The notes below the pieces were generated by a model. That model had not been told where the DNA came from. It worked only from the letters and a program-made list of their open reading frames with translations, and searched no databases. A stretch of DNA of 64,000 bases from Minisyncoccota bacterium (GTDB lineage Bacteria > Patescibacteriota > Minisyncoccia > Phycocordibacterales > CAJBRS01). Where the stretch lies: assembly GCA_035652395.1 (NCBI GenBank), contig DASRDX010000009.1, positions 208,411 through 272,410 of the forward strand, in the 5' to 3' direction. Positions 6,052 to 13,239 of this stretch are shown here, one piece after another (the stretch's first letter is position 1; the number at the start of each line of letters is the position of its first letter). The translations under genes and the position numbers were made by a program.

Positions 6052-7113
6052 ATGCTAAAGAAAGCTAAAAAAGTTTTTGTCGCCATGTCCGGCGGAGTGG
6101 ATTCGTCTGTTTCGGCCGCGTTGCTCCAAAAGGCCGGCTATGATGTTACTGGAGTATTCATAAAAGTCTGGCAGCCGGACTTTATTCATTGCACTTGGAA
6201 GGAAGATAGGAGGGATGCCATGCGGGTGGCCGCTCTTTTGGATATTCCGTTTTTAACTTTGGATTTAGAAAAGGAATACAAAAAGGAAGTGGTGGACTAC
6301 ATGCTGGCCGAATATAAAGCCGGACGAACACCCAATCCGGACGTTATGTGCAATCAGCAGATTAAATTCGGCGCTTATTATCGATGGGCTCTGAAGCAGG
6401 GAGCGGATTATGTCGCCACTGGTCATTATGCACGGGTGACCCGAAGTCAATTATTTGAAGGAAAGGATAAAAACAAAGACCAAAGCTACTTTTTGTGGAC
6501 TTTAACGAAAGATCAATTAGCGCATATCTTGTTTCCGATCGGAGATTTCAAAAAAGAAAAGGTTCGGCAGCTTGCCAAAAAATTCAAGCTGCCGAACGCC
6601 GAGAAAAAGGACAGCCAAGGCCTCTGCTTTATCGGCAAAGTGGATATGAAGGAATTTTTATCCCACTTTATTAAGCCTAAGGCAGGGAAGGTGGTAGATG
6701 AAGAGGGAAATACCCTCGGCGATCATAACGGCGCCTTCTTTTTCACTATTGGCGAAAGACATGGGTTTAATATCACTAAAAAATCTCCGAAAGATAAGCC
6801 CTATTATGTTATCGGCAAGGATCTGAAGAAGAACTTACTTATCGTTTCTGATCGGTCGAAAATAGCTGAAGAAAGCAAAAAAAGAAAAAGCTGCAGCTTA
6901 TCAGCCGTTAATTGGATAGAAAACCCGACAACCGGCAAGAATTACACTTGTCGAATTCGCTATAGACAAGAAAAGCAGAAATGTACCATAAAAAGGCGCG
7001 GCAAAAACTTCGAAGCCGTTTTTGCCGCGCCCCAAACCACCTTGGCCTCCGGCCAATCTCTCGTTCTCTATGAGCAAGAAAAATGTCTGGGCGGGGGAGT
7101 AATAGAGGTATAG
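6052..7113 (+). CDS. mnmA: tRNA-specific 2-thiouridylase MnmA
   Basis: PP-loop motif VAMSGGVDSSV is present, together with the conserved central and C-terminal MnmA regions. Confidence 0.93.
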   Translation: MLKKAKKVFVAMSGGVDSSVSAALLQKAGYDVTGVFIKVWQPDFIHCTWKEDRRDAMRVAALLDIPFLTLDLEKEYKKEVVDYMLAEYKAGRTPNPDVMCNQQIKFGAYYRWALKQGADYVATGHYARVTRSQLFEGKDKNKDQSYFLWTLTKDQLAHILFPIGDFKKEKVRQLAKKFKLPNAEKKDSQGLCFIGKVDMKEFLSHFIKPKAGKVVDEEGNTLGDHNGAFFFTIGERHGFNITKKSPKDKPYYVIGKDLKKNLLIVSDRSKIAEESKKRKSCSLSAVNWIENPTTGKNYTCRIRYRQEKQKCTIKRRGKNFEAVFAAPQTTLASGQSLVLYEQEKCLGGGVIEV

Positions 7114-7163: not shown

Positions 7164-8009
7164 ATGCATAAATCCAATATTCAAATCATCAAAAATACTG
7201 GCGAAAGGGAATTTTTTGATCCGGAAAAGCTAATTGACTCCTTGCGAGACGCCGGTGCCGACAAATTGGTGATTGAAAAAGTAGTGAAGCATATTGAAGA
7301 TGAACTTCACGATGGTATGACTACGCGGGCTATTTATGATCACGCTTTTCAATATTTAAAAAAGCTCCAAAGGCCGGTAGCCGCCCGCTATTCGCTGAAA
7401 AAAGCTATTGCCGAGCTTGGACCAACCGGTTTTCCTTTTGAAGATTACGTGGCTAGAATTTTTAGCTCTCGGGGTTATAAAACCCTAACGGATCAAATGG
7501 TGCTGGGAAGCTGCGTCCCGCACGAAGTTGATATTGTGGCCTGGAACAAGGAGAAGCTCATCATGTGCGAAGTGAAATTCCATAATGAAACTAGTCCGAA
7601 GACTGATCTAAAAGTGGCTCTTTACGTGAAGGCTCGCTTTGACGATCTGAAAGCTAACATTTTTGATTACGGACACGAACGCCGGCTGGATGAAGGTTGG
7701 CTCATCACCAATACTAAATTCACTGAAACAGCTATTCACTATGGCGAGTGCTACGGTCTCAAAATGGTCGGCTGGGATTATCCGAAAAAGGGCAATCTTC
7801 AACAATTCATTGAAGACCAAGAGCTTCATCCCATTACCTGTCTCACCACTCTAACCTCCGCTGAAAAGACCGACCTTCTCGCTAACAAAATCGTCCTCTG
7901 CCGCGAACTCTTAGAAAATCACCATCATCTCTTTACGCACCTCCCCGACGCCCAAAAACGCCTCCCCGAAATTTTGGAGGAAATAAACTATCTGACAGGA
8001 CAGAAGTAA
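7164..8009 (+). CDS. ATP-cone domain fused to Mrr-like restriction endonuclease (PD-(D/E)xK) domain protein
   Basis: N-terminal IQIIKNTGEREFFDPEKLIDSLRDAG...VVKHIEDEL has an ATP-cone-like pattern. The central VDIVAWNKEKLIMCEVKF region is a D...E.K nuclease core of Mrr_cat type. Confidence 0.65.
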   Translation: MHKSNIQIIKNTGEREFFDPEKLIDSLRDAGADKLVIEKVVKHIEDELHDGMTTRAIYDHAFQYLKKLQRPVAARYSLKKAIAELGPTGFPFEDYVARIFSSRGYKTLTDQMVLGSCVPHEVDIVAWNKEKLIMCEVKFHNETSPKTDLKVALYVKARFDDLKANIFDYGHERRLDEGWLITNTKFTETAIHYGECYGLKMVGWDYPKKGNLQQFIEDQELHPITCLTTLTSAEKTDLLANKIVLCRELLENHHHLFTHLPDAQKRLPEILEEINYLTGQK

Positions 8010-8061
8010 ATTTTTTCTGAATTTGAAATAAACTCATTTTTATGGCATAATCCATTAAATA

Positions 8062-9027
8062 ATGGCCAATTTATTTCGGATCACAGCTAGTAATCCAGAG
8101 GCTTACCAGCATTACATCGATACAATCGAGCGAGGTTTTCCGTTAGATTCAGTCACTAGTTTTCTTGACCAAGATCAAATCTTTGCATTAAGAAATATCT
8201 ACGGTGATAAGCTAATTCGGGCTTGGGGTGCTACTGCAGGGTCTGGAAATATTCGAACTTGGCATCAACTTAATATTGGCGACCCCATTTTAATTTATCG
8301 AAAAGGCAATTTTGAATATTACGCTTTTGTAACTTTTAAAATCCACAATAAGGATTTGGCGAAACATTTGTGGCGCACCAATCCCCAGGGAGAAACCTGG
8401 GAATATGTTTACTTTTTAGATGGTCTGGTGGAAATTTCTGTTCCCCTCAAAATTTTTAATGAATTAATGGGATTTAACGAAGCTTTTCGACCATATGGGT
8501 TTGCCGCTACCGAATCAATGCGGTTAAATAGAATTGAAAATAAATTTGGATCAGTAATAGATTTTCTTAATTACCTTCGTGAAGGAAAATGGGTGGACAA
8601 AGAAACTCAGTATCCTGCTGAAGTCAAAGAAAATATTATAAAGGAGAGATTATTACGCCCTATTGGGAACACCACCATATTGGAAGCTAACCTCGAGAAT
8701 CTGATTGTCGATAAGGTTAGTGAAATTGAACCCGGCCTCAATCTCATTGGAAGACAAGTAGATACTAAAGAAGTCGGCCGATTAGATCTGTTGTGTGAAG
8801 ATAAGGATAAAAATCTGGTGGTCATCGAATTAAAAAGAGCGGCTGCTGGACCATCTATTATTGAACAGATTCAACGATATATGGGCTGGGCCATAAAGCA
8901 CCGAGCACAACCTGGTCAGCGAGTGCGAGGCATCATTATAGCCGGATCAAAAGATACTGCCTTAGAATACGCCGTTAGTGCAAATCCTTTAATGGAAGTA
9001 AAGACTTTCAATTTGTCTATTCAGTAG
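8062..9027 (+). CDS. NucS/EndoMS-like (DUF91) PD-(D/E)xK endonuclease domain protein with an N-terminal beta-barrel (PUA/EVE-like?) domain
   Basis: C-terminal EPGLNLIGRQVDTKEVGRLDLLCEDKDKNLVVIELKRAAAGPSIIEQIQRY matches the NucS C-terminal nuclease signature. Assignment of the N-terminal domain is inference. Confidence 0.6.
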   Translation: MANLFRITASNPEAYQHYIDTIERGFPLDSVTSFLDQDQIFALRNIYGDKLIRAWGATAGSGNIRTWHQLNIGDPILIYRKGNFEYYAFVTFKIHNKDLAKHLWRTNPQGETWEYVYFLDGLVEISVPLKIFNELMGFNEAFRPYGFAATESMRLNRIENKFGSVIDFLNYLREGKWVDKETQYPAEVKENIIKERLLRPIGNTTILEANLENLIVDKVSEIEPGLNLIGRQVDTKEVGRLDLLCEDKDKNLVVIELKRAAAGPSIIEQIQRYMGWAIKHRAQPGQRVRGIIIAGSKDTALEYAVSANPLMEVKTFNLSIQ

Positions 9028-9105
9028 ATCATACAAGAAGTCAGAATTGACAACAGCTTATACAAGAATTGGGCGGCTGGCCCACTTCTGTGATAAAAAT
9101 AACGA

Positions 9106-10494
9106 ATGTCCTCGAGACCTTTTCACGATGAATACAGCGATGAGCCAGAATTACAAGCTGGTGACAAAGTGGCATTTGGGAAATGGTTAACAATAACCCA
9201 TCCTTATAAAAATTGCCCAAATTGCAGACGTCGAGTCTTAGGCAATCCGATGATGCATAGCGGTGAGACCTATGTTATGGCATGTCTTTTGTGCGATTAC
9301 ACTGAGGGTTTGAATCTTCCAAAATTAAAAAAGAAAGTAATCTATCTAGATCAGTTCGTATTTGACAATATCGTAAAAACTTTGGATCCAAAGCACCCTA
9401 AGCACTCTCAAGTTATTAAGGAGCCATTCTGGAAGGAGGTATTTGAAAAGCTTGAAGGACCTACCAGAGCAGAACTTATTGTTTGTCCAGATTCATTTTT
9501 CCATATAGATGAATCGGCTCCAACAGATTATTTTAAGTCATTAGAAAGAATCTACGAACATTTTTCTGGAGGAGTCACCTTCTTAAATAACGCTAAAATT
9601 ACTGAACAACAGGTGGTCAATTACTTTAAAAACTGGCTAATCGGAAAAGATGTAATACCTGTTCTTGATCCATCTCAAATTGTGATAGGAGATCTAAATA
9701 AGTGGCACGACCGGATGAAAGTCAGTATAAGTATGCAGCCCAAAGAAGAAGAGATTAAAGAGAAGCTGGAACATAAGAAAAAAGGGTATAAGTTTTTTTG
9801 TGAAGTGTTCCGGCGGTGGCAGACAGAAACGCAGAGGAAATTTGACGATTGGTATCGTGAAGAGATTGGTGGATTTGCCAAGGGCACAATTCTTGCTGCA
9901 AAAAATTTCCAGGAACGCCAAACGGCTTTTTTGATGAACTATGTGCCAGGTCAAATAATTGATCTAAATAATATTTTACCGCCCCCTAGTGTTGATTTGC
10001 TTAAAAAATTAATGAATGAAGCATTTATAGCAGGAGCGTCCGATCAACAAGATTGTGTTAAAAAAGTGCTTGATTTTATGCAGATTGAGAATCTACAAAA
10101 AATACCTGCCATAAGAATTCAAAGTCTTATCTATGCCGCCCTTGCAGATCAGGCCGCTCATGGAAGAAAAAATCTACCTTCTCCCGGAGTCCAAGCGGAT
10201 ACTGATATGATCTCCGGGCTACTTCCATATTGTGATGCCATCTTTGTTGATAAGGAAAACGCAGCTCTTCTAGAAGATGGCCGAGTAAAAGGAAAGCTAG
10301 GAGTAAATACAAAAATATTTTCTCTCAGAAACAAGGAAGCTTTCCTTAATTATTTAGATAATATATTGTTAAAAGCTGATAATGATCATCTTAGATTTGT
10401 TCAGCAGATATATGGAAAGGATTGGGCGAAACCCTATCTGACAATAATTGAGGACATGGATAAATATGAAACCAATAATGGGAGCGACAAGTAA
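9106..10494 (+). CDS. Hypothetical protein with N-terminal zinc-ribbon (CPNC...CLLC)
   Basis: 462-aa ORF with an N-terminal CxxC...CxxC pair. No other recognisable motif. Confidence 0.5.
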   Translation: MSSRPFHDEYSDEPELQAGDKVAFGKWLTITHPYKNCPNCRRRVLGNPMMHSGETYVMACLLCDYTEGLNLPKLKKKVIYLDQFVFDNIVKTLDPKHPKHSQVIKEPFWKEVFEKLEGPTRAELIVCPDSFFHIDESAPTDYFKSLERIYEHFSGGVTFLNNAKITEQQVVNYFKNWLIGKDVIPVLDPSQIVIGDLNKWHDRMKVSISMQPKEEEIKEKLEHKKKGYKFFCEVFRRWQTETQRKFDDWYREEIGGFAKGTILAAKNFQERQTAFLMNYVPGQIIDLNNILPPPSVDLLKKLMNEAFIAGASDQQDCVKKVLDFMQIENLQKIPAIRIQSLIYAALADQAAHGRKNLPSPGVQADTDMISGLLPYCDAIFVDKENAALLEDGRVKGKLGVNTKIFSLRNKEAFLNYLDNILLKADNDHLRFVQQIYGKDWAKPYLTIIEDMDKYETNNGSDK

Positions 10495-10572
10495 TTTTTC
10501 GCCAACAGGGCGACACCTTTTATTTCTTGGGAGCAAGTGAGGAAATTTAAATGAATAAGATATAATCAAGAT

Positions 10573-11172
10573 ATGAGAAAAATTATTGTTTTATCTTTTA
10601 TTAGTCTAGATGGGGTAATGCAGGCGCCGGGCGGCCCGGACGAAGATACTTCGAGCGGGTTTAAATACGGGGGCTGGACCTTTCCATACTTTGATGAAGC
10701 GGCGGGGAAGCTGATGGATGAGCAGATGAAAGAGCCCTTTAGTTTGCTTTTGGGGCGAAAAACTTATGACATCTTTGCCAATTATTGGCCGCAACATGGA
10801 GAGAATTGGCCCGGAGTAAATAAAGCTCAAAAATACGTGGCTTCAAACACTTTGACCGAGGCCAAATGGGAAAACAGTGTCATTTTAAATGGGGATGTGG
10901 TATCCGCCGTGAAGAAATTGAAAGAGGAAGATGGGCCGGATCTTCAGGTTTATGGTTCCGGCAATTTCATTCAAACTCTTCTTAAGAACGATTTAGTGGA
11001 TGAATTATGGCTGAAAACCTTTCCCGTAACTCTTGGTGGTGGTAAGAAATTGTTTGCCGAGGGTACGATTCCGGCTGCATTTAAATTGCTGGAGTCTAAA
11101 TCTACACCCAGCGGAGTAATTTTCGCCAATTACAAGAGAGATGGGGAAGTAAAAACCGGTTCTTTTTCCTAG
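10573..11172 (+). CDS. Dihydrofolate reductase family protein (RibD C-terminal domain type)
   Basis: IIVLSFISLDGVMQAPGG...GRKTYDIF...VYGSGNF pattern of the YwjB/RibD_C family. Confidence 0.75.
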   Translation: MRKIIVLSFISLDGVMQAPGGPDEDTSSGFKYGGWTFPYFDEAAGKLMDEQMKEPFSLLLGRKTYDIFANYWPQHGENWPGVNKAQKYVASNTLTEAKWENSVILNGDVVSAVKKLKEEDGPDLQVYGSGNFIQTLLKNDLVDELWLKTFPVTLGGGKKLFAEGTIPAAFKLLESKSTPSGVIFANYKRDGEVKTGSFS

Positions 11173-11209
11173 CCTCTAAACAGGAATTGAAAAGTGTTAT
11201 ACTGCTCGC

Positions 11210-12007
11210 GTGAGTCACTATAATAAAGACAAAAAAAGGACTATTTTCAATACTGATTCCAAGGAGCCTTTTAAGATCAGTCGATCAAAGATTGATCTTT
11301 TTACCGAGTGTCCGCGCTGTTTTTATTTAGATCAGGTGCTCGGCGTGCCACGCCCGCGACCCTTTCCCTTCACTTTAAATGCAGCTGTTGATAAGTTGCT
11401 GAAGAAGGAATTCGATATTCATCGCGCGGCGGGGAGCCCTCATCCCATGATGGAACAATATGGAATTGATGCCGTGCCATTTGCTCACGATAATCTGGAG
11501 GAATGGAGAGACGCTCTTCGAAAGGGCATTAGCTATTTGGATCCGGAAACCAATCTTTTGGTGCGAGGCGGAATAGATGATGTTTGGATTACCTCGGACA
11601 AGGAATTATTAATTGTTGATTATAAAGCTACAGCCAAAGAGGCCGAAGTTACTCTAGATGCAGAGTGGCAGGACGGATACAAGAGACAAGTGGAAGTTTA
11701 TCAATGGCTCTTTCGTCAAAATGGTTTTAAAGTCTCCGATACCGCTTGGTTTGTCTACGTGAACGGCAAAACAGACAGAAAAGCTTTTGATGGGAAGTTG
11801 GATTTCGATATTAAATTAATTTCTCACAAGGGATCTGATAAATGGATTCCGGCGACACTGAAGGAGATCAAGAAATGTTTAATAAGCGAGAAATCGCCGG
11901 CGCCGGCCGAGGACTGCGAGTATTGCAGTTATCGCAATCAGGCGGCCGCCGCTTTTCAGGCCCGTATTAGCGCTAATAAAGAATTGAAAGAATCAACCTT
12001 GTTTTAA
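11210..12007 (+). CDS. Cas4/RecB-like PD-(D/E)xK nuclease with Fe-S cysteine quartet
   Basis: N-terminal CPRCFY and C-terminal CEYCSY cysteines flank a DYK...QVEVYQ nuclease core, as in Cas4/AddB nuclease domains. GTG start. No CRISPR array nearby. Confidence 0.65.
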   Translation: MSHYNKDKKRTIFNTDSKEPFKISRSKIDLFTECPRCFYLDQVLGVPRPRPFPFTLNAAVDKLLKKEFDIHRAAGSPHPMMEQYGIDAVPFAHDNLEEWRDALRKGISYLDPETNLLVRGGIDDVWITSDKELLIVDYKATAKEAEVTLDAEWQDGYKRQVEVYQWLFRQNGFKVSDTAWFVYVNGKTDRKAFDGKLDFDIKLISHKGSDKWIPATLKEIKKCLISEKSPAPAEDCEYCSYRNQAAAAFQARISANKELKESTLF

Positions 12008-12008
12008 C

Positions 12009-12617
12009 ATGATGGAGCGAGAGGAGTTATATGAACATCTAAAAAATGAAAGCAAGGTGCTTGAATCAGAGCCACTTGCACGCGCTTTTCGCGAAATTGA
12101 TAGAGCCGATTTTGTCCCCGAGGACTACAAGGTAGAAGCGTATGAAGATTATGCCTTGCCGATTGGTTTTGGTCAGACCATTTCTCAACCGACCACCGTG
12201 GCCTTTATGCTGGAACTGCTCGATGTCAAAGAAGGAGAAGAGGTACTGGACATTGGCTCCGGCTCAGGATGGACCACGGCTTTACTTTCTAACTTGGTTG
12301 GACAAGAAGGATTGGTCTTGGGAGTGGAAATCGTACCTGAATTAGCAGAGCTGGGACAAAAAAACTTGCAGCCATATAAATATTCTCAAACCAAGATCAT
12401 AAAAGTGGGGGAGGAAGAGGAGCAGAGCGAGCAGTATGACAAGATTCTCGTTTCGGCATCGGCAGAAGAACTTCCGGAGGATTTAATTGAGAGACTAAGA
12501 GCTGGTGGAACTATTGTAATTCCCATCGAAGAATCTATTTTTAAAATCATCAAAACAGAGGATGGGGAACTGGAGGAGGCGGAATACCCCGGCTTTGCTT
12601 TTGTACCGCTGATTTAA
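12009..12617 (+). CDS. pcm: Protein-L-isoaspartate O-methyltransferase
   Basis: The SAM-binding motif LDIGSGSGW and the PIMT family pattern are present. Confidence 0.88.
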   Translation: MMEREELYEHLKNESKVLESEPLARAFREIDRADFVPEDYKVEAYEDYALPIGFGQTISQPTTVAFMLELLDVKEGEEVLDIGSGSGWTTALLSNLVGQEGLVLGVEIVPELAELGQKNLQPYKYSQTKIIKVGEEEEQSEQYDKILVSASAEELPEDLIERLRAGGTIVIPIEESIFKIIKTEDGELEEAEYPGFAFVPLI

Positions 12618-12630
12618 GTATAGTTAACCT

Positions 12631-13239
12631 ATGAAGCTAGAAGAAAAGAAAGAAGCCCTCCGAAAAATAAAAGACGAGGTAGTGGCTCTGAAAGCCTCGC
12701 CCTTGTTTGAAGAAAGAACTAAGAACAAAGTTTTCCCAGTAATAGGCGAGGGAAGTCATGATGGGGAAATTATGTTCGTGGGAGAAGCACCGGGAAAAAA
12801 CGAAGCCGCGACCGGCCGCCCTTTTGTCGGGGCGGCCGGAAAAATCCTGACTCAATTATTGGAAGAGATCGGCATTAAGCGCGAAGATGTCTACATTACC
12901 AATATCGTCAAAGATCGACCACCGCAAAATCGCGATCCATTGCCAGACGAAATCGAAATCTACGGCCCGTTTCTGGATCGTCAGATTGATATCATCCAGC
13001 CAAAAATCATCGCCACTCTAGGACGATTTTCAATGGTCTACATCATGACGAAATTCGGTCTGGAATTTGAACTTTTGCCAATTACCCAAATGCACGGCAA
13101 AAGTTTTGAGGCCGAAGCTACCTATGGCAAAGTCACTATCATTCCGTTCTACCATCCAGCCGCTTCAATCTATAATCAAAGTTTGCGAGAAGTATTGCGA
13201 GAGGACTTCAAAATTTTAAAGAAATATGCCAAAAAATAA
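12631..13239 (+). CDS. Uracil-DNA glycosylase, family 4
   Basis: GEAPGKNEAATGRPFVGAAGKIL...ITNIVKDRPPQNRDP motif. Confidence 0.9.
   Translation: MKLEEKKEALRKIKDEVVALKASPLFEERTKNKVFPVIGEGSHDGEIMFVGEAPGKNEAATGRPFVGAAGKILTQLLEEIGIKREDVYITNIVKDRPPQNRDPLPDEIEIYGPFLDRQIDIIQPKIIATLGRFSMVYIMTKFGLEFELLPITQMHGKSFEAEATYGKVTIIPFYHPAASIYNQSLREVLREDFKILKKYAKK

Follow-up and report, generated by a model that had tools for sequence, protein, structure and literature searches.

Fusions of a PUA-superfamily sensor domain to a PD-(D/E)xK or HNH nuclease constitute modification-dependent restriction enzymes (PMC7897488), and fusions of prokaryotic YTH-like domains to PD(D/E)XK nucleases have been noted earlier (PMC7641849). 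The N-terminal domain of T. gammatolerans McrB shows a preference for N6mA DNA and holds the modified base in a cage of two to three aromatic residues (PMC7544203). Besides this YTH-like domain, the PUA-superfamily reader-nuclease enzymes used here for comparison are VcaM4I (EVE-HNH), and MspJI and AspBHI (SRA-like domain with PD-(D/E)xK). The other proteins of the locus were compared with the Mrr type IV restriction endonuclease, with Cas4/AddB-type Fe-S RecB-like nucleases and with VapC/PIN-like nucleases, some of which are toxins encoded in defence islands and within operons of type I RM systems (PMC5499597).

The window analysed here (the whole stretch of 64,000 nucleotides from a Minisyncoccota contig) contains a 4.8-kb block of five ORFs (positions 7164-12007, all on the + strand), which the initial annotation had regarded as a defence-island-like cluster of three PD-(D/E)xK nucleases and a zinc-ribbon protein. 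All ORFs and domains claimed for the block are present at exactly the positions given there, and the flanking mnmA, pcm and UDG genes were confirmed with Pfam. The claim that neither cas genes nor a CRISPR array lie nearby also holds, with no Cas profile match among the other 54 window ORFs and no array-like tandem repeats in the window; tRNA genes were likewise not found in the window. The genes of the locus are as follows.

6052..7113, + strand: mnmA (tRNA 2-thiouridylase; Pfam tRNA_Me_trans, 260 bits), upstream backbone anchor
7164..8009, + strand: ATP-cone plus Mrr-type PD-(D/E)xK nuclease, 281 aa (Pfam ATP-cone and Mrr_cat), conserved Paceibacterota backbone gene
8062..9027, + strand: NucS-like protein of 321 aa, predicted type IV (modification-dependent) restriction endonuclease acting as a single chain; accessory gene of the insert
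9106..10494, + strand: 462-aa protein, zinc ribbon followed by a probable PIN-like core that a helical insertion interrupts; accessory gene of the insert
10573..11172, + strand: dihydrofolate-reductase-like gene (Pfam RibD_C, 86 bits, as the family assignment of the initial annotation implied), present in 0/80 related loci
11210..12007, + strand: Cas4-like PD-(D/E)xK protein with CxxC...CxxC, 265 aa, conserved backbone gene, not CRISPR-associated
12009..12617, + strand: PCMT (protein isoaspartate methyltransferase; Pfam, 169.6 bits), housekeeping
12631..13239, + strand: UDG, family 4/5-type uracil-DNA glycosylase (Pfam UDG, 108.7 bits), downstream backbone anchor

Taken as a whole, the block is probably best explained as a mosaic, not as a single island or system: two nuclease genes that are near-universal at this site in relatives are separated by a recently inserted pair.

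Conserved backbone and lineage-specific insertion

Searching 80 species-level Paceibacterota loci, fetched via mnmA, with the window proteins (tblastn) revealed the gene order mnmA, ATP-cone/Mrr, (Cas4-like), UDG. The ATP-cone/Mrr gene lies directly 3' of mnmA in 64 of the 80 loci, with 45-74% identity, which is the range of mnmA itself; the Cas4-like gene occupies the equivalent position in 26 (53-75% identity), and UDG, found in 30, follows either of the two. PCMT was present in only 5/80 loci and is thus variable at this site despite its housekeeping role, and the NucS-like, 462-aa and RibD_C genes were each found in none of the 80. The locus of the closest relative (L010) consists of mnmA, ATP-cone/Mrr, Cas4-like and UDG, with 36 bp unaccounted for and no insert. 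These four genes represent a vertically inherited Paceibacterota gene string, which probably serves DNA or nucleotide housekeeping, and the ATP-cone/Mrr and Cas4-like genes belong to the lineage core, with a fixed gene order, rather than to the cargo of an island. An insertion of about 3.2 kb (roughly 8010-11209) between them would have occurred in this lineage; no att-like repeats, integrase or tRNA marking the insertion and no other phage genes near the inserted genes were found.

The NucS-like and 462-aa genes rank lowest in GC3 among the 44 window genes (0.33 versus a window mean of 0.43, z = -2.3; the 462-aa gene, at 0.330, is the window minimum) and are compositionally foreign. The comparison with the flanks proposed in the initial annotation thus revealed a GC dip, restricted however to 8062-10494; the rest of the block is host-like, including the ATP-cone/Mrr gene (GC3 0.472, window-typical) and the RibD_C gene (0.455). 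Given the host-like composition of the latter, more than one event may have contributed to the insert. RibD_C also adjoins 462-aa homologues in L002/L003 (74% identity) and L115 (63%).

No co-variation was detected among the ATP-cone/Mrr, NucS-like, 462-aa and Cas4-like genes, and no pair of them travels together. Homologues of the window NucS-like protein occur in 0/89 loci with a 462-aa homologue, and the 462-aa gene in 0/5 sequenced loci with a NucS-like homologue (the sixth context, which comes without DNA, has no gene of similar size). The four genes therefore do not form a multi-gene system and, the block being a mosaic without co-variation, the defence reading holds for two genes only, NucS-like and 462-aa; the inserted segment would then comprise two independent single-gene defence candidates. 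Of the cluster originally proposed, these two genes retain a defence-like character, whereas the ATP-cone/Mrr and Cas4-like genes turned out to be syntenic lineage core, and an island of three clustered nucleases does not stand. The opposite scenario named in the initial annotation, that of core genes conserved in relatives with no co-variation, describes these two backbone genes and the absence of co-variation, but not the lineage-specific NucS-like and 462-aa genes.

Both backbone nucleases have retained their characteristic residues. In the 281-aa protein, the ATP-cone (31.8 bits, cut-off 25.8) and the Mrr_cat core (25.0 bits, cut-off 21) both exceed the Pfam cut-offs, in agreement with the original assignment, and H120, E121, D123, E136 and K138 are at least 95% conserved across 60 orthologues. 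The family comprises at least 5,100 clusters at 90% identity, uniformly of ~280 aa, and all clusters with names belong to Patescibacteria. Like Mrr, the protein has a PD-(D/E)xK core with intact (H)ExD...ExK residues; it differs in carrying an ATP-cone in place of the N-terminal winged-helix reader, which suggests a nuclease gated by ATP/dATP, and in being encoded by a syntenic Patescibacteria core gene beside mnmA, not by an accessory defence gene. The 265-aa protein matches PDDEXK_1 (Pfam, 55.8 bits) and shares with Cas4/AddB-type nucleases the RecB-like motifs (D...DxK, QxxxY) and four Cys that are invariant across 26 orthologues; C34, C37, C236, C239, D137, K139, Q160 and Y164 are at least 95% conserved. 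The Cas4/RecB-like assignment with a four-Cys arrangement is therefore upheld in part, as the pattern CxxC (34, 37)...CxxC (236, 239) is not that of canonical Cas4 and the scores fall below the Cas4 cut-offs (Cas_Cas4, 20.9 versus 22.7 bits; TIGR00372, 29 versus 65 bits). Moreover, the gene has no accompanying cas genes or array and is kept between ATP-cone/Mrr and UDG in the 26 relatives that carry it.

The NucS-like reader-nuclease protein

The following features were recognized in and upstream of the NucS-like gene.

8023..8051, + strand: promoter-like site (TTGAAA, 17 nt spacer, CATAAT, TG extension), a consensus match upstream of the NucS-like gene; such sites are, in total, no more numerous than expected from shuffled sequence
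8062..8556, + strand: YTH/EVE-like (PUA-superfamily) modified-base reader domain, residues 1 to ~165
8680..9027, + strand: NucS_C-type PD-(D/E)xK nuclease domain, residues ~207-321

The C-terminal nuclease assigned earlier was recovered as NucS_C (residues 208-298, 49.4 bits, cut-off 24), which is both the top Pfam and the top PDB sequence match of the protein, and the D242/E256/K258 triad is conserved. No Pfam model covers the N-terminal domain, for which an EVE/PUA-like fold had been suggested; a YTH/EVE-like reader was indeed found (AF2 model of the whole protein, pLDDT 86). The PADLOC search, also proposed in the initial annotation, matched the nuclease domain only (PDC-S02) and gave no match for the 462-aa protein. 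A true mismatch endonuclease, which had been considered as a counter-example, was rejected on the scores of the NucS equivalog models, which lie far below their cut-offs (63.5 bits versus 216 and 38 versus 252) and cover the nuclease domain only. The protein further differs from NucS/EndoMS in its N-terminal domain, which is YTH/EVE-like and not of the NucS type, and in being accessory, not core.

The 321-aa protein is thus predicted to combine a YTH/EVE-like reader and a nuclease in a type IV restriction architecture. It departs from the VcaM4I and MspJI classes in its nuclease module, which is of the NucS_C/DUF91 type instead of HNH or MspJI-type, and from McrBC in having no AAA+ GTPase partner. 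In the predicted mechanism, a modified base of the incoming DNA would be flipped out by the N-terminal domain and received in its putative aromatic pocket (W55, W67, W104, W113). By analogy with the closest structural match, this base may be N6-methyladenine, or else a modified cytosine. The C-terminal domain would next cleave the DNA, and host DNA without that mark would escape.

The family comprises ~60 clusters, mostly confined to Paceibacterota, and five of its six homologue contexts are plain housekeeping neighbourhoods. The reader domain itself was found in 21 viral contigs and in phrog_14240, and occurs in phage contigs fused to HNH. Swapping of nuclease modules around one reader domain is typical of modification-dependent restriction enzymes. 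These phage HNH fusions adjoin terminase genes. As HNH proteins in that position can take part in DNA packaging, general DNA binding might instead be the function of the shared N-terminal domain.

The 462-aa protein family

The 462-aa protein was described originally as having a CxxC...CxxC ribbon and no recognizable domain, and both points were borne out: its four Cys are at least 90% conserved across 64 homologues, and no match was obtained in Pfam, NCBIfam, PADLOC or PHROGs. Its AF2 model (pLDDT 93.3, pTM 0.90) allowed the following parts to be distinguished.

9193..9315, + strand: four-Cys zinc ribbon (C37, C40, C60, C63), residues ~30-70
9331..9675, + strand: N-terminal half of the PIN-like core, residues ~76-190, with YLDQ (D82), CPDS (127-130), H133 and E136
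9688..10185, + strand: all-helical insertion domain, residues ~195-360, candidate sensor or regulatory module
10186..10380, + strand: C-terminal half of the PIN-like core, residues ~361-425, with D365 and PYCDAxFVD (D377, D382)
10499..10513, + strand: terminator-like hairpin directly 3' of the gene, a pattern match

The ribbon, with beta strands at 30-36, 43-48, 55-60 and 66-70, matches the ELOF1/Elf1 zinc ribbon (Foldseek, prob 0.82-0.92) and is replaced by a SEC-C zinc motif in 14/64 homologues. The core superposes on VapC toxins and presents its conserved acidic residues in VapC-like order: D82, E136 and D365 are invariant and D377 and D382 near-invariant, while P374, Y375, C376, D377, F380 and D382 are at least 90% conserved. 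E136 sits in a short helix just past strand 2, the location of the catalytic Glu in VapC-like PINs (PMC5499597). The modelled core is a probable Mg2+-dependent PIN-like nuclease, with DNA or RNA as its putative substrate. The insert of ~170-200 residues that splits the core (helices 214-240, 246-278, 294-308, 314-330 and 334-351) gave no match in the structural search and may sense or gate activity. Compared with VapC/PIN-like nucleases at RM loci, the protein is three to four times larger, has an N-terminal zinc ribbon and a core-splitting helical insert, is recognized by no PIN HMM, and is adjoined by no antitoxin-sized gene. What it shares with some PIN toxins is a location in operons of type I RM systems and in defence islands.

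Homology searches retrieved 1,979 cluster representatives (50% identity) at E<=1e-3 and 745 at E<=1e-30. The original view of this protein as unnamed was therefore correct, as it belongs to an undescribed family of ~2,000 representatives, outside the Pfam families in the copy searched; the gene combination to which that view extended is not a system. The distribution is patchy (Paceibacterota, Dehalobacterium, Dehalobacter, Ignavibacteriales), with a distant copy on a conjugative Rhizobium plasmid and homologues in three viral contigs. Frequent neighbours in other phyla are restriction systems (type I, type III and type ISP), methyltransferases and integrases. A homologue in L093 lies beside a type I RM operon, a NucS_C-domain nuclease two genes away that differs from that of the window, and Hypoth_Ymh; type III Mod/Res is found near another in L098, and further contexts include a type ISP enzyme with DUF2779, a PLD-SNF2 helicase with an MmeI-type methyltransferase, and AAA_13. 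At positions ±2/±3 (265 neighbour ORFs), the commonest families are N6_N4 methyltransferase, integrase, ResIII and MvaI/BcnI. Among immediate neighbours, LexA (6/122) and TPR proteins lead, followed by N6_N4 methyltransferase, AbiU2 and Tsp45I, and the majority, in raw counts, are non-defence genes. The protein may be a stand-alone effector, possibly anti-phage, that rides in restriction and defence islands, and its family is the interesting lead of the block.

Alternative readings of the locus

A single defence island or multi-gene system spanning all of 7164-12007, with joint action of the three PD-(D/E)xK nucleases and the zinc-ribbon protein, is very improbable and largely refuted by synteny. 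Four nuclease-like genes do lie within 5 kb on one strand, a relative of the NucS-like gene (L198) is adjoined by a Cas4-like gene, Vsr, a C5 methyltransferase and a HATPase_c_3 gene, and L093 pairs a NucS_C nuclease with a 462-aa homologue. However, the ATP-cone/Mrr and Cas4-like genes show housekeeping-like divergence and host-like GC3 within the fixed mnmA-UDG order and are adjacent in the closest relative with nothing between; the window's other nucleases occur in 0/89 loci with 462-aa homologues and in no NucS-like loci, and the L198 Cas4-like protein has no detectable similarity to the window. It is also unlikely that all four genes serve repair or housekeeping, with a divergent EndoMS/NucS and an RNA-processing PIN in a repair cluster beside UDG. 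UDG, Cas4-like and ATP-cone/Mrr do resemble a conserved repair or nucleotide-linked string, and the NucS_C matches, the housekeeping contexts of several NucS-like homologues and the leading position of LexA beside 462-aa homologues would agree with this, but the equivalog scores, the YTH/EVE-like domain, the absence of both foreign genes from all related loci, and the patchy spread of the 462-aa family beside RM systems and integrases and on a conjugative plasmid all argue against it.

The 462-aa protein is possibly, though doubtfully, not a nuclease at all: its PIN resemblance would then reflect no more than a generic Rossmann-like alpha/beta sandwich in a zinc-ribbon nucleic-acid binder, a regulator, a phosphatase-like or another mobile-element-borne enzyme. 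Finally, we consider it quite unlikely that the inserted genes are a decayed phage or mobile-element remnant (e.g., a phage-derived reader-nuclease with cargo) with no current host function, as the viral occurrences of the reader domain and of the 462-aa family and the low GC3 might suggest. Against this, neither an integrase nor att repeats nor further phage genes lie nearby, the viral reader homologues carry HNH and not NucS_C, the NucS-like gene is preceded by a promoter-like site and the 462-aa gene followed by a terminator-like hairpin (both as pattern matches), and neither ORF is truncated or has lost any of its conserved catalytic residues.

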